A stretch of DNA of 64,000 nt from the sequence record SRR31156797_986. One strand, written 5' to 3'. The notes under the pieces were generated by a model, which was given only the letters and a program-made list of their open reading frames with translations, did not search any database and was not told the DNA's origin. A program made the translations under genes and the position numbers. Within the stretch, counting starts at the first letter, position 1, and each line of letters starts with the position of its first letter. Below, piece by piece: positions 22,931 through 26,925 of this stretch.

Positions 22931-24301
22931 TTAGTTTATCACGATCTTCTTAACTTCAAGAAGATCACTACCAACCAGTTTAAGGAAATAGACGCCCTTT
23001 TGCAGATGATTAAGATCAAACTGATAGGCTGATCCGTTGGCCTTCATGCCGGGCTCAAATACGTGGATGATGCGGCCCCTGGTATCCATCAACCAGATTT
23101 GCATTTTTTCGGGCCAGTAATTCATGCTCAGTGCAAATTGCCCATGTGATGGGTTTGGGTAAACCAGGGAGATCAGTTCCGGGAATTCGCTTGTCCGGCT
23201 GGCATCAAGTGTGAGGCTTTTTATGGCTGACAAACCCTGCACGTTAAAAATCCCCTGTTGCGGAAGGGCTTCTTTGTAATTCACGGTCAGGTTAATCTCC
23301 TCATTTCCCTCTGGGCGATACACCCTGAACTGCAACATTTCCCCAAATTCAAATCCTTCTCTTTCCATTGTTGTTGCATCATTGGCAAAAGCTGATACAG
23401 CAATATTTTCCTTCAGGTTGCGTATTTCAGCGCGTCCGGCACAAAGGCCATCTGGCGTAAATGCACCAATAAAATCACCTGCCTGTATACCGCCATCCAC
23501 CAATACCTCTGCCGGAAAAGCAATCGCATGGGAAGAGGCTGTATAATTCAAATTATTCCATGGGGTGTTATTTTGTGGCTTTTCGTCGGGCTTTGAAATT
23601 GATGAACTTTTTGAACAGTCAGGATAGGTAACCCCCCCGGGGTCATCCATCAACACCCAGTATGCTTTACCGGGCTCCAATGTACCCAGAGTTTCAATCC
23701 CGAATGCGGGCCAGTAAACATTTGAACCTGCCACTTCCTTTACAATATTAAGTGTGGTCATTCCATCAAATACTATGTTGGGTGTGGCGCCACAAGGTGT
23801 CAGTACCGGCATAAGGTTCCAGCCCATGTCCAAATCTACCTGCGCCGGGTCAATCTTAGAACCTGTTAGAGTAACATTAAATTCGTTTGCAGCTTTCACC
23901 TGGTAACCGGTTTCCGGCGACCAGTTAACGATGGTATTCACTCCTCCGTCAGGATAGTAAAATTCCATCATCGAAGCCAGGATAATAAAATCCGGGATAT
24001 GTGGCGAAAACATATCTTCAAGCCCTTTATTGAGTGGGTCAATATATGAGGAAACTCCACTCCATCCAGCAGGGATGTTAAGGATTTGACTGAGATAAAA
24101 ACTGTAGGGTTGTTGAAACCCCTGGGTAAGTAAAAAATTATCAGTTTCAAATGTTTCGACAACGGTTTCGCCCAGGGTCCAGCTTAATGACAGGTTGCCT
24201 GTTTCAGAATAACCGCCGGCTGAGGCAACAACTTGTTGTGATACCGCAAACTTAAAGTTCGCAAGCATCAGTAATAAAACTAAAAGTAGTTTTGTTTTCA
24301 T
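22931..24301 (-). CDS. T9SS C-terminal domain protein of unknown function
   Basis: Signal peptide, QQVVASAGG..LSWTLGE..LTQGFQQP N-domain, YPNP..GVYFLKL..KKIVIN CTD. Confidence 0.85.
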   Translation of the reverse strand: MKTKLLLVLLLMLANFKFAVSQQVVASAGGYSETGNLSLSWTLGETVVETFETDNFLLTQGFQQPYSFYLSQILNIPAGWSGVSSYIDPLNKGLEDMFSPHIPDFIILASMMEFYYPDGGVNTIVNWSPETGYQVKAANEFNVTLTGSKIDPAQVDLDMGWNLMPVLTPCGATPNIVFDGMTTLNIVKEVAGSNVYWPAFGIETLGTLEPGKAYWVLMDDPGGVTYPDCSKSSSISKPDEKPQNNTPWNNLNYTASSHAIAFPAEVLVDGGIQAGDFIGAFTPDGLCAGRAEIRNLKENIAVSAFANDATTMEREGFEFGEMLQFRVYRPEGNEEINLTVNYKEALPQQGIFNVQGLSAIKSLTLDASRTSEFPELISLVYPNPSHGQFALSMNYWPEKMQIWLMDTRGRIIHVFEPGMKANGSAYQFDLNHLQKGVYFLKLVGSDLLEVKKIVIN

Positions 24302-24738
24302 GGTCTGTTAATTTATGTGGTTCATGTAAATGAATCTTTTTTTTCTGATTTTCAAAAAGATACAACAATCGAAATTGGTTTGTGCCTTTGGGTTTAAGCT
24401 CAAAGTACCCTTCCTGGCCAGGAATAACATTTAATTAACATATAGCGGGAGAGAATGCCATGGAAGCTTCATTACTATGAGGAATTCTCTTCAAGGTCGG
24501 AAGCATTTAAAAGAGAAAAATTCTTTAAAACTATTGATGGATATGACTATTTAAAATCCAAAGGTATAATTTGATAAAAGTGGGTGAAATAGATTTATTT
24601 CTCCCTCTAACCCCAATCATTTCAACTTATAAAAGAAATGATTTAAAGGTTTTCAAATTCAGAAGCCAATCGACCTGAATCAGAAACTGGCTAATCTGGA
24701 ATTTTCTGAGAAAGCAATTTACTGTTTGTAATTTATTA

Positions 24739-24746
24739 TAATTTTG
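24739..24746 (+). promoter_or_regulatory. Bacteroidota -7 promoter box for tRNA-Ser
   Basis: TAATTTTG matches TAnnTTTG, 7 nt before the tRNA. Confidence 0.6.
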
Positions 24747-24753
24747 TGGCTTC

Positions 24754-24842
24754 GGAGAAGTGCCGGAGTGGTCGAACGGGGCAGACTCGAAATCTGTTGG
24801 CCGGCTTAGGCTGGCCCGGGGGTTCGAATCCCTCCTTCTCCG
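24754..24842 (+). tRNA. tRNA-Ser(CGA)
   Basis: Acceptor GGAGAAG/CTTCTCC, anticodon arm GCAGA-CTCGAAA-TCTGT, long variable arm, GGTTCGAATCC T-arm, G discriminator; CCA not fully encoded. Confidence 0.95.
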
Positions 24843-25187
24843 CAGAAAAATAGGTCGCTTTCAAAATGCGGCCTTTTTTAGTATCTGGAAACCTGACCTT
24901 TGATTTCACCTAATCTTAATCTTGAATTAACCTTTAGTTAATGTTTTTAGGGTTAATTTGTTACCGATTGATTTTGTGTCTGGCGGATGGAAACCAAATT
25001 TTTATGATACATCCTGAAGCAATCACAATCAGATTTTACGCATTACCTGAGCTCTTCCAAAGTTAACTCTATATCTCCTAACGCGATGACGACACCCAAT
25101 CTCATCGCGTTTATTTTGCCAGTTCACCTTTTTTTGAGTCTGTCAAATAATTGTTTTTAAACCCTGAATTATTTCCAATAAAAATTT

Positions 25188-25195
25188 TACTTTTG
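25188..25195 (+). promoter_or_regulatory. Bacteroidota -7 promoter box for tRNA-Pro
   Basis: TACTTTTG matches TAnnTTTG. Confidence 0.6.
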
Positions 25196-25216
25196 CAGCC
25201 CTTTTTAAAAAATAAT

Positions 25217-25289
25217 CGGGGTGTGGCGCAGTTGGTAGCGTGCTTGACTGGGGGTCAAGAGGTCGCGAGTTCGAGTCTCGCCACTCCGA
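25217..25289 (+). tRNA. tRNA-Pro(GGG)
   Basis: Acceptor CGGGGTG/CACTCCG, anticodon arm CTTGA-CTGGGGG-TCAAG, T-arm GCGAG-TTCGAGT-CTCGC, A discriminator. Confidence 0.95.
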
Positions 25290-25290
25290 C

Positions 25291-25325
25291 AAAGGGAGTT
25301 TGATAAACATCAGGCTCCTTTTTTT
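25291..25325 (+). terminator. Terminator after tRNA-Pro
   Basis: AAGGGAGTTTGAT-AAAC-ATCAGGCTCCTT then T-run. Confidence 0.7.
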
Positions 25326-25329
25326 AGTT

Positions 25330-25572
25330 ATGCACTTCACCTACATCATACAATCCGAAACAACCAATAAATACTATGTTGGTTCCACCCAAAATGTGGC
25401 AGAACGCCTGAGAAGGCACAATGCAAACCATTCTAAATCTACAAAAAACAAAGGCCCCTGGGGACTGGTGAAATCATTTCAGTTTGATACCCGTTCTGAA
25501 GCCATGCAACTGGAAAAGAAAATCAAGGCCAGGGGAATCAGCAGGTTTCTGGAGGGTTTGCAAACAGCATGA
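25330..25572 (+). CDS. Minimal GIY-YIG nuclease family protein (80 aa)
   Basis: FTYII...YYVGST...RLRRHN...EAMQLEKKIK motifs; ATG at 25330 (the ORF-track start lies inside the tRNA). Confidence 0.9.
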   Translation: MHFTYIIQSETTNKYYVGSTQNVAERLRRHNANHSKSTKNKGPWGLVKSFQFDTRSEAMQLEKKIKARGISRFLEGLQTA

Positions 25573-25592
25573 AAAAGCACTTTTGTCTTTTT

Positions 25593-25687
25593 GGTGGTGT
25601 GGCGCTATTGGAGCGTGTCCCGCCAGAGGGCGGGAAGGTCGCGAGTTCTGCCATAGGCATCCCTTCGGGAGAGTCTCGCCACTCCGA
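25593..25687 (+). pseudogene. Remodelled copy of tRNA-Pro (anticodon arm replaced, 22-nt insertion in T-loop)
   Basis: GGTGTGGCGC, AGCGTG, AGGTCGCGAGTTC and GAGTCTCGCCACTCCGA blocks identical to 25217-25289. Confidence 0.85.
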
Positions 25688-25696
25688 CAAAAGCAA

Positions 25697-25733
25697 ATGG
25701 CTGTTAGGGATAAATCTGACAGCCATGTTTTTT
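25697..25733. terminator. Hairpin/terminator between pseudo-tRNA and convergent sdaA
   Basis: ATGGCTGTTAG...CTGACAGCCAT followed by T-run. Confidence 0.65.
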
Positions 25734-26925
25734 ACCGCTTGTAAACTTTCGCCAGCCCGCCCTGAGAGGTTTCTTTGTACAGGCTTGGCAAATCATTTCC
25801 GGTTTGTTTCATGGCTTCAACTACCTCATCGAAAAGCACATAATGCCGGCCATCAGAATTGTAAGCGAATAACGCTGAATCAATGGCCCGCTGCGCTCCG
25901 AATGCATTTCGTTCGATGCAGGGTATTTGCACCAGTCCGGCCACAGGATCGCAGGTTAGCCCCAGGTGATGTTCCAGTCCTGAGCTGGCAGCATATTCAA
26001 TCTGGTAAATGGTGCCGCCAGGAATTTGTGTTGCAGCAGCGGCAGCCATCGAACTGGCTGATCCAACCTCGCCCTGACATCCCACCTCAGCACCGGAAAT
26101 GGATGCATTTTCTTTGATCAGGTTCCCGATTAAACCGGCCGTAGCAAGGGCATGTAAAATCCTTTTTTCGGAAATCGAATATTGTTGCTCGAATAAATAA
26201 AGTACTGCCGGTAAAATGCCACATGAGCCACAGGTTGGTGCTGTAACCACTACATTTCCTGCGGCATTTTCCTCTGAAACGGCCAGTGCATAGGCAAATA
26301 GGTACGACTCGTCCTGGGCAAACTGGTTGCGGCCCCTGGCTTTGAAATGATAGGATGGTGCCTTGCGCTGCAGTTTTAATCCACCCGGCAAGGTGCCGTC
26401 TGTTTCCAGTCCGCGATGGATTGCCTCCTTCATGGCTTTCCACGCCGTGGAAAGGTAATCCAGTACATCGGAGTCGTCATATTTCAAAACATATTCCCAA
26501 AAAGTGCCTCCGTTGGCCTCAAGGTGTGCCAGGATGTCTTTCATGGTTTTGTCGGGATAGATTTTTTTGGTTTCCTGTTTCGAATTTTCATCCATGATTT
26601 CACCACCACCTATACTGTAAACTTCCCAGTTGTCGGTTAGTTTACCCTGTTCATCAAATGCTTCAAACCGCATGCCGTTGGTGTGGAGCGGCAGCCGTTC
26701 GTTTGGGTGCCAGACTAAATCAGCCTTTTGGTCGAAAGTATTCAGCAAAGTAACATCCGTTAGGTGACCTTTGCCTGTAAGTGCCAGGCTCCCAAAAAGG
26801 TGAATTTTAAACTGAGCGGCCATTGGGTTTTTGGCCAGGAATTTTTCGGCTGCTTTTTTCGGCCCCATTGTATGCGATGATGACGGGCCGTTCCCGATTT
26901 TATAGATCTTTTTGATACTTTCCAT
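25732..26925 (-). CDS. sdaA: Fe-S-dependent L-serine ammonia-lyase (single chain)
   Basis: GPSSSHTMGP, VVTAPTCG, ISGAEVGCQGEVG, LGLTCDPVAGLVQIPCIERN, YKETSQGGLA. Confidence 0.95.
   Translation of the reverse strand: MESIKKIYKIGNGPSSSHTMGPKKAAEKFLAKNPMAAQFKIHLFGSLALTGKGHLTDVTLLNTFDQKADLVWHPNERLPLHTNGMRFEAFDEQGKLTDNWEVYSIGGGEIMDENSKQETKKIYPDKTMKDILAHLEANGGTFWEYVLKYDDSDVLDYLSTAWKAMKEAIHRGLETDGTLPGGLKLQRKAPSYHFKARGRNQFAQDESYLFAYALAVSEENAAGNVVVTAPTCGSCGILPAVLYLFEQQYSISEKRILHALATAGLIGNLIKENASISGAEVGCQGEVGSASSMAAAAATQIPGGTIYQIEYAASSGLEHHLGLTCDPVAGLVQIPCIERNAFGAQRAIDSALFAYNSDGRHYVLFDEVVEAMKQTGNDLPSLYKETSQGGLAKVYKR

Follow-up and report, generated by a model that had tools for sequence, protein, structure and literature searches.

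The SsnA protein of Neisseria meningitidis, 94 aa long, comprises a single GIY-YIG domain (Chenal et al. 2025, PMC11893778). On single-stranded DNA, and only there, it attaches to the NTS hairpin (CGTCATTCCCGCGMAVGCGGGAATCYRG) and cleaves immediately upstream, its homologues have hairpin variants of their own, and the authors likened the NTS-ssnA-NTS layout to insertion sequences (PMC11893778). In that study, a protein is assigned to Ssn either by CDD cd10448 or by a tblastn match to N. meningitidis SsnA at E<1e-10 (PMC11893778). Among seven rows of its supplement, two Bacteroides/Prevotella entries have no ssnA homologue and two Flavobacterium entries have one in one of four columns; neither "tRNA" nor "Bacteroid" occurs in the main text (PMC11893778). 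Hairpins multiplied by a nuclease are also known from IS200/IS605 elements with REP/BIME hairpins, where an HUH transposase works through covalent intermediates (as discussed in PMC11893778). Finally, SegB of phage T4 is a GIY-YIG homing endonuclease encoded in a tRNA gene cluster; it cuts double-stranded DNA and drives the inheritance of its own gene together with the neighbouring tRNA genes (PMC2330249).

Here, we describe a locus where a GIY-YIG gene lies between a working tRNA gene and a hairpin-marked copy of that tRNA. The window, i.e., the whole stretch of DNA analysed, comprises 64,000 nucleotides of sequence record SRR31156797_986, and all features given below with window coordinates are on its plus strand. 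The working gene, 5' of the cassette, is an intact tRNA-Pro(GGG) at 25217..25289 (ARAGORN; Rfam RF00005, 64.2 bits, E 2.1e-12). Between this tRNA and the nuclease ORF stands a terminator-like hairpin with a T run (25291..25328; stem 25291-25322, then TTTAGTT). The nuclease ATG lies directly 3' of the T run, and an equivalent hairpin and T run are found at the same place in relatives of the window locus. The product of the gene at 25330..25572 is a GIY-YIG nuclease of 80 aa with one domain (Pfam PF01541, E 9e-19, residues 1-66). A spacer of 20 nt leads from this ORF to the tRNA copy, with no overlap between the two in the window. After the copy comes a strong intrinsic-terminator-like hairpin (25697-25726) with its T run (25697..25736 in total), which is probably the native tRNA terminator, judging by analogy from a tRNA-Pro locus that is filled in one other genome (G128) and empty in another (G406). 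The 3' end of a convergent serine dehydratase gene lies beyond this hairpin.

The ORFs near the locus correspond to a secretion-tail protein, the serine dehydratase and an AI-2E transporter. No integrase gene adjoins the partial tRNA repeat, and the unit between the two tRNA repeats measures only ~300 nt; on these grounds, we rejected an integrase-borne island in a tRNA gene (attL/attR). An IS200/IS605-type hairpin element was rejected as well, as the unit holds no HUH (Y1) transposase and its sole ORF is the GIY-YIG gene. Further upstream, 5' of a tRNA-Ser (24754-24843), the stop-to-stop frame at 24446..24574 is a probable C-terminal relic of a second GIY-YIG gene; its match to PF01541 (profile positions 44-69, E 0.0042, 17.8 bits) lies below the cut-off. 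In a separate assembly of the probable source run, the region 25150-25800 was contained in one 134,606-bp contig with 0 differences, the sample not being independent; because of this identity, we do not regard the locus as a misassembly of the record.

Aligned to the working gene (25217-25289), the copy of tRNA-Pro(GGG) spans 25593-25687 (95 nt). Its 5' acceptor strand and D arm (25593..25617) are degenerate, with four substitutions and one deletion: the substitutions include acceptor positions 1 and 3, the deleted base belongs to the D-loop, and acceptor pairing of the copy is 5/7. At the anticodon-arm position (25618..25635), an 18-nt signature hairpin with a perfect 7-bp stem, TCCCGCC-AGAG-GGCGGGA, stands in for the 17-nt anticodon arm. 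The variable region, the 5' strand of the T-stem and the TTC of the T-loop follow (AGGTCGCGAGTTC, 25636..25648), identical to the tRNA at 13/13 positions. The T-loop then carries a 22-nt insert (25649..25670) made of two mini-hairpins, TGCC-ATA-GGCA (25649-25659) and TCCC-TTC-GGGA (25660-25670), the latter containing CTTCGG. The remainder of the T-loop, the 3' strand of the T-stem, the 3' acceptor strand, the discriminator and a 4-nt trailer (GAGTCTCGCCACTCCGACAAA, 25671..25691) are again identical to the tRNA (21/21). In the alignment, the longest uninterrupted blocks shared by copy and tRNA measure 21, 13, and 10 nt.

An initial annotation of this DNA had reported that the anticodon arm was exactly swapped for the hairpin at 25618-25635, and that the 22-nt two-hairpin insert at 25649-25670 followed TTC with no target duplication. 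Sequence and alignment confirmed both claims in every coordinate. It had also described the flanks as identical to the tRNA, which holds for 25636-25648 and 25671-25691 and fails for the degenerate 5' part at 25593-25617.

A tRNA identity of the copy (RF00005) was rejected: neither ARAGORN nor Rfam RF00005 at E<=1 called a tRNA at 25593-25687, and a cloverleaf with a 7-nt anticodon loop was found there by neither. The pattern TCCCG-N2-12-CGGGA matched once in the window vs. 0.26 expected, and at least once in 21 of 100 shuffles, so this count alone is insufficient; the evidence beyond chance comes from the exact placement in the tRNA frame and from recurrence elsewhere. As RNA, 25590-25692 folds at -46.6 kcal/mol (z -2.69), and with its flanks the z-score is -4.66, with 0 of 200 shuffles folding as well. 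Such a good fold is expected for any tRNA-derived sequence to which perfect hairpins have been added.

For the comparison with other genomes, the search was centred on a complete Bacteroidales chromosome found via the serine dehydratase gene, and 401 genomes of its order were searched with the nuclease protein. Relatives at E<=1e-8 were present in 131 of them. Thirty loci, 60 more from the top of the match list and the window itself make up a set of 91 loci (79 genomes, 125 gene hits), which represents the best matches to the window protein in one order, not a random sample, with 97 weaker matches lying outside it. Among the 74 usable loci –those with at least 200 nt of upstream sequence– a same-strand ARAGORN tRNA was found within 150 nt 5' of the first nuclease gene in 53, and within 450 nt in 59. 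The tRNAs at nuclease loci are of 15 types (Val-TAC 12, Pro-GGG 9, Asp 7, Met 6, Asn 5, and others). The nuclease gene is usually followed by a partial copy of that same tRNA, whose T arm and 3' acceptor strand are those of the local tRNA and whose anticodon arm has given way to a GC-rich palindrome. For 113 complete ORFs, 120 nt or more of downstream sequence was available; there was a strict anticodon-position hairpin after the ORF in 51 cases, a TCCCG-like hairpin in 63, and any GC hairpin absent from the tRNA in 87. The search for hairpins near GIY-YIG genes that the initial annotation had proposed thus found them neither unique to the window locus nor lacking enrichment there.

About one quarter of the usable loci have no nearby tRNA, and about half of the ORFs have no strict hairpin; contig ends and strict definitions account for part of this.

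Most related copies start only in the D-loop, with the nuclease stop codon inside the copy; at many loci, the D-loop's TAG (GGTTAGAGC) is this stop codon, and 4 nt further on the hairpin starts. The window copy is an unusually complete version, since it has full length, both kinds of hairpin and no overlap with the ORF. The swapped segments run from the end of the D arm to the start of the variable region, and 33 of 43 distinct ones pair perfectly from their outermost bases. Stems measure 5-9 bp, loops mostly 3-4 nt, and the modal length is 18 nt vs. 17 nt for the real arm. Over the outer five positions of the 43 segments, we counted 183 Watson-Crick pairs, 5 G-T pairs and 27 mismatches, compared with 60.6, 27, and 127, respectively, in shuffled segments.

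The arm sequence varies with the locus. It reads TCCCGCC in L088 and L089, TCCCGC in L086, and TTCACGC in L087, with a variant arm also in L091; TCCCGAT is found at Met and Asn genes, and TCCCGACT at Val genes. Two loci are arrays, L092 with eight units and the arm TCCCG, and L106 with the arm TCCCGTTT, and in L098 the nuclease gene is deleted. In five complete genomes, the pattern TCCCG-N2-12-CGGGA-RGGYC matched 44 times and its reversed control 0 times. Across the phylum, 141 of the 401 genomes had at least one match to the hairpin pattern, a count to be read with the reversed control also matching in a minority of genomes and many single matches not being palindromes.

The search by synteny with the serine dehydratase gene gave 80 related loci (the best 74% identical) with no DNA match to the tRNA, the nuclease gene or the copy; thus, these loci offered no orthologue of the window locus itself. 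ARAGORN found no tRNA in the 12 serine dehydratase loci scanned (L001-L012). A DNA search of 41 relatives of genome G251 with the closest locus returned mostly tRNA-only matches, and it was the source of the locus pair L089/L121.

Regarding the T-loop, interruptions of the copy also fall into classes. Counted from the tRNA 3' end, the 3' uninterrupted block of the copy starts at 31 nt in 14 of the 46 listed rows, at 21 nt in 9, at 16-19 nt in 11, and elsewhere in 12. A start at 31 nt corresponds to the start of the variable region and one at 21 nt to the first T-loop base; the window, at 18 nt, belongs to the 16-19 class. The anticodon-arm swap occurs together with GC hairpins after GTTC or GTTCG(AA) in L172, L178 (two hairpins), L182, L183, and L161, and a comparable T-loop GC hairpin after GTTC or GTTCG(AA) is also present in L181. 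Counted by eye, the T arm is disrupted in 8 of 34 distinct swapped copies. Since the anticodon swap and the T-loop hairpins are both recurrent among relatives, the window combines two family traits. On the protein tree, a clade with long T-loop inserts (at His, Asp, Met, Gly, and Ala genes) is separate from the anticodon-swap clades.

No second instance of the exact 22-nt insert was found, and the T-loop hairpin is absent from the four closest relatives of the window locus. A scan of the metagenome collection for the window's T arm with any insert of 8-38 nt gave 0 matches. Parts of the copy are represented in contigs of a relative from a different sample's DNA run; in one of them, the hairpin loop is 2 bases shorter. 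Another relative contig of that DNA run breaks at 25650, 2 bases into the insert, and continues with 40 other letters and then the start of a tRNA-Pro.

Two species carry the same tRNA-Pro locus in a filled and an empty state (L089 in G128 and L121 in G406, respectively). The flank after the hairpin copy of G128 is the flank after the plain tRNA of G406, through the terminator and beyond, the 5' flanks are partly alike, and G128 is ~410 nt longer at this locus. As far as one filled/empty pair of sequences can tell, this shows that the cassette is an insertion. In the four cassette-free tRNA-Pro(GGG) loci (L119-L122), the anticodon arm is that of the window's working gene, and there is no nuclease gene within 1.5 kb.

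At the protein level, Pfam detected the GIY-YIG catalytic domain only, with no other domain above the cut-off. The nearest solved structure is UPF0213 BH0048 (1zg2, E 2.6e-7), followed by Slx1. In NCBIfam nothing was above the cut-off for the nuclease, the best match being a group I intron endonuclease subfamily at 29 bits vs. a 56-bit cut-off. Within the window clade, pN is 0.18-0.33 and pS is 0.70-0.93 (saturated), with dN/dS at 0.11-0.18 where computable, and the GIY, YIG, Arg, His, and Glu positions are retained. These substitution patterns indicate that the nuclease protein is under purifying selection. The arm TCCCGC(C) is also retained in the window clade, despite the synonymous saturation.

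The protein tree was built from 85 proteins and 86 columns, with many forks unresolved, and 300 label shuffles were run on it. The window groups with L086-L089, all of them at tRNA-Pro(GGG) (SH-aLRT 95). On this tree, tRNA type requires 24 changes, compared with a mean of 42 and a minimum of 36 in the shuffles; for the 7-nt hairpin arm, 26 changes stand against a shuffled mean of 32.4 and a minimum of 28, and 0 of 300 shuffles were as low in either case. Such counts measure association and are no proof of co-evolution, because kinship alone gives shared labels. The palindromes share homology from one tRNA type to another and go with the nuclease lineage. As the hairpin arm follows the nuclease lineage, a recognition site fits better than mere disruption. 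The initial annotation had seen the hairpins as ultra-short palindromic insertions at stem-loop sites; we found them instead to be parts of a cassette, inherited with the nuclease gene.

In two genomes, one stem serves several tRNA types. In G034, there are 30 hairpin copies at Ala, Asp, and Pro tRNA genes; the stem is always TCCCG/CGGGA and mainly the 3-nt loop varies. Six of these copies stand in tandem, with a period of 85 nt, between tRNA-Ile and tRNA-Ala within an rRNA operon. Others lie before each tRNA-Asp, in a dozen or more tRNA-Asp-like units with their own terminators, and in a tRNA-Pro array with nuclease genes. The PF01541 matches of this genome are limited to one 8-copy array and one 608-aa frame. 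In G265, the arms TCCCGAT/ATCGGGA are common to Asn, Pro, Ala, and Val genes.

With a probability of roughly 60%, we read the feature as the downstream boundary of a tRNA-linked nuclease cassette with a disabled spare tRNA copy. The cassette site consists of the working tRNA-Pro(GGG), the terminator-like hairpin, the 80-aa GIY-YIG gene, the disabled spare copy and the native terminator, and this order is seen again at 15 or more tRNA species in Bacteroidales genomes. The most likely mechanism, in our analysis, would be a nuclease with its cognate hairpin, placed on tRNA-derived homology arms. The hairpins would be the nuclease's own cognate sites, as in Ssn/NTS pairs. The two tRNA-derived repeats would act as highly conserved homology arms, at which recombination may carry the cassette into the same tRNA gene of another genome and may likewise enlarge it into arrays. 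By sitting in the anticodon arm and the T-loop, the hairpins would also kill the spare tRNA and break up the direct repeat.

Regarding the arrangement of the sites, the signature hairpin of the window stands 3' of the gene only and not on both sides, which speaks against the main reading.

Among the alternatives, we first considered that the hairpins are immunising marks: a homing endonuclease would cut the tRNA gene at the anticodon arm or the T-loop, and the hairpins would replace its targets and protect the cassette copy from recutting. The hairpins do occupy two recurrent positions of the copy, as seen in the 31-, 21-, and 16-19-nt start classes, and there is the filled/empty pair of G128 and G406. 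Moreover, T4 SegB recognises 27 bp that include an 11-bp T-loop motif of tRNA genes (PMC2330249), which keeps the idea alive for the T-loop insert. However, the working tRNA is unmodified, its anticodon arm being identical to that of the cassette-free loci L119-L122, so that immunity of the spare copy alone would leave an essential host gene cuttable. Any disruption would serve for immunity; the arms, however, are perfect palindromes, and nuclease clades conserve them. There are also arrays of hairpin copies with no nuclease gene anywhere near, and the protein is a bare 80-aa catalytic domain that lacks the separate DNA-binding domain of the SegB type. Overall, we consider immunising marks unlikely.

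Less plausible still is that hairpins without any specific partner act as repeat breakers, which would split the direct repeat below recombination length, guard the nuclease gene and silence the spare tRNA. The identical blocks of the window, at most 21, 13, and 10 nt long, agree with this, and so do the internal deletion (L098) and the array growth (L092, L106) by which repeat recombination appears elsewhere. Nevertheless, repeat breaking leaves unexplained why the inserted sequence is a perfect GC palindrome of arm-like length with a TCCCG core, why it tracks the nuclease clades and why a single stem serves several tRNA types within one genome. It is compatible with the nuclease cassette that we prefer, where it would be a side benefit.

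The initial annotation had also raised a structured tRNA-mimic RNA. In this case, the copy would be a functional anticodon-less tRNA-like RNA, for instance a decoy, or an element for processing or stabilising the nuclease mRNA at its 3' end. The window copy is not truncated, its fold shows a D arm, then a long hairpin and an extended T arm, the swapped arm has the length of a real one, and some hairpin tRNA-Asp units of G034 have their own terminator. Among sequencing runs, the probable source run alone contained the whole stretch, and RNA-library runs contained small shares of it. In one RNA library, a contig of a relative (86% alike, depth 3.7) joins the ORF end to the tRNA 5' part, which is proof neither of transcription nor of its absence. 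The acceptor stem speaks against such an RNA: among 27 swapped copies whose T arm is intact, acceptor pairing reached 5/7 at best, random-like, whereas true tRNAs had 7/7 in 60 of 66 cases. With 0 of these 27 related copies pairing at 6/7 or better, the acceptor stem is not kept, and a tRNA mimic becomes very unlikely. In addition, most copies begin in the D-loop, within the ORF, the window copy has no Rfam tRNA match at E<=1, and G-T pairs are nearly missing from the hairpin stems.

That a duplicated tRNA gene simply decayed, the hairpins being products of chance or of local template switching, is hardly credible. One match to the hairpin pattern in the window has no significance of its own, and scattered substitutions affect the 5' part of the copy. 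Yet dozens of loci, at several tRNA types, have this swap at one and the same position, with homologous arms. The initial annotation had judged that this was not random decay, and it is borne out by the GC-rich palindromes of the same type that dozens of genomes have beside GIY-YIG genes, at matching positions of the tRNA.

If our main reading is true, it gives a natural setting and a likely role to single-domain GIY-YIG proteins outside Neisseria, a large group that is mostly uncharacterised. It would also account for odd tRNA-like calls and for the pseudo-tRNA arrays by which tRNA finders are misled; at such copies, ARAGORN reported 'tRNA-???' and a false tRNA-SeC. The cassette may also help explain the contig ends at many of these loci. 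Further, it would imply many nuclease/hairpin pairs of differing specificity, and the Ssn authors see in such pairs raw material for ssDNA tools (PMC11893778). It raises the question of how a hydrolytic nuclease without a DNA-binding domain maintains and multiplies a cassette at essential genes.

We tentatively suggest, with more doubt than for the cassette itself, that these loci could represent selfish elements of a class so far undescribed. Each would combine a bare GIY-YIG nuclease of 80-90 aa with a lineage-specific hairpin, have the near-universal tRNA sequence as portable homology arms and place its hairpin precisely at the site of the former anticodon arm or T-loop, thereby spreading between species, jumping between tRNA types within a genome and building arrays of dead copies even in rRNA operons. 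If the nuclease is an Ssn-like cutter of single-stranded DNA, heavily transcribed tRNA genes would provide its single-stranded substrate. In the openly available full-text literature, we found no description of GIY-YIG genes with hairpin-swapped tRNA copies.

When compared with known systems, the cassette shares different parts with each of them. With IS200/IS605 and REP/BIME it has in common a nuclease linked to ssDNA hairpins that are multiplied in the genome, as these elements are presented in the Ssn paper; unlike them, its sole ORF encodes a hydrolytic GIY-YIG domain. In fungal mitochondria, free-standing GIY-YIG elements integrate at the 3' ends of genes, and a displaced duplicate of the gene end remains behind them. 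The order of intact gene, GIY-YIG ORF and displaced partial 3' copy is the same here, whereas the mitochondrial elements have protein-coding targets, no signature palindromes and an organelle setting.

The phage protein SegB is larger and has a part that binds DNA. Like SegB, the nuclease described here has a free-standing GIY-YIG gene among tRNA genes, and gene-less alleles exist (G406; L119-L122). It differs in being a chromosomal protein reduced to the bare 80-aa catalytic domain, with no separate DNA-binding domain, and the abstract of the SegB paper reports no hairpin-swapped tRNA copies.

Finally, the likeness to Ssn concerns both the enzyme and the hairpin. Both proteins are small single-domain GIY-YIG proteins (94 aa in Ssn vs. 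80 aa here, within the limit of ~150 aa or less used for Ssn), GC-rich hairpin repeats adjoin the gene in both, and in both, as far as the Ssn text describes it, the hairpin changes with the enzyme. At its core, the NTS (TCCCGC...GCGGGA) nearly equals the TCCCGCC...GGCGGGA of the window. The published degenerate SRM motif had 0 matches on both strands of the 91 loci (158,737 nt, including window positions 24000-26500), because the oriented flanks differ. Unlike the layout described for Ssn, the hairpins here lie inside partial tRNA copies, in the anticodon arm or the T-loop, and the gene is placed right behind a working tRNA. The nearest structure to the protein is UPF0213 BH0048 and not a named Ssn. 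By likeness, then, the closest known counterpart of the nuclease/hairpin pair of this cassette would be the Ssn/NTS system.

Hairpin-bearing tRNA copies were found in long runs in one Bacteroidales genome, G034. Between tRNA-Ile and tRNA-Ala of one rRNA operon (L186, G034:C1:588900-590100, reverse strand), the spacer holds six tandem 85-nt units, each a truncated tRNA-Ala with TCCCG-NNN-CGGGA in place of the anticodon arm. A second rRNA operon (L189) has a single such unit. The same genome presents a run of at least 12 tRNA-Asp-like units with the swapped hairpin (L187 and L188, G034:C1:687700-696900), in which every unit has a terminator of its own and a spacer of 150-190 nt without a recognisable nuclease gene, and the hairpin loops vary among them (GAA, TGA, GGA, and AGA). 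One of these units is interrupted in the T-loop by several kb of DNA that opens with repeated GTGCCA motifs and an ORF whose start reads MAAKKIDIMDVRQL; the inserted DNA looks like an insertion sequence.

Among the 60 nuclease regions picked from the best protein matches (L126-L185), many nuclease loci lie at most a few hundred bases from a contig end, which would fit assembly breaks at repeated units. Thus, the copy numbers of the cassette (working tRNA, nuclease gene, and disabled tRNA copy) in draft genomes may be too low.

Hairpins are not confined to the anticodon arm and the T-loop. In L181 (G075), ARAGORN called a "tRNA-Pro(CGG)" with CCCCGC-TTAA-GCGGGG in place of the D arm, and the copies 3' of the nuclease genes carry this hairpin in two places, the D arm and the T-loop; the D arm is thus a third site for such hairpins. 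Moreover, swapped copies were also found upstream of the working tRNA in L118 (G408), L104 (G300), and L191 (G265), where they include 13-27 nt of the working tRNA's 5' flank and end in the T-loop. Therefore, the cassette leaves partial copies of a 5' type besides those of the 3' type.

In the window, CTTTTGTC (25580-25587), just 5' of the hairpin-bearing tRNA-Pro(GGG) copy, is complementary to GACAAAAG (25686-25693) at the copy's 3' end, and the two are base-paired in the predicted fold of 25575-25735. No equivalent pairing was seen among the four closest relatives of the locus. A stop-to-stop frame at 24446-24574 (+ strand; 42 codons, RERMPWKLHYYEEFSSRSEAFKREKFF...) gave a weak match, under the cut-off, to positions 44-69 of the GIY-YIG profile (E 0.0042) and probably represents a C-terminal relic of a second cassette; no hairpin copy was seen near it in the window. 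A tRNA-Ser begins 180 nt downstream of this frame.

Two of the closest relatives presented oddities of their own. The nearest by nuclease identity (78%), the ORF at 1501-1725 of L088 (G317), appears to be frameshifted within an A run close to its 3' end, and its C-terminal residues are KKNQEKRNQKIY instead of the KKIKKRG..RF of the other relatives. In L087 (G207), the working tRNA-Pro(GGG) next to the cassette (1784-1864, - strand; 81 nt by ARAGORN) has AGGTC duplicated in the variable region, a duplication that recombination at the hairpin junction may have left behind.
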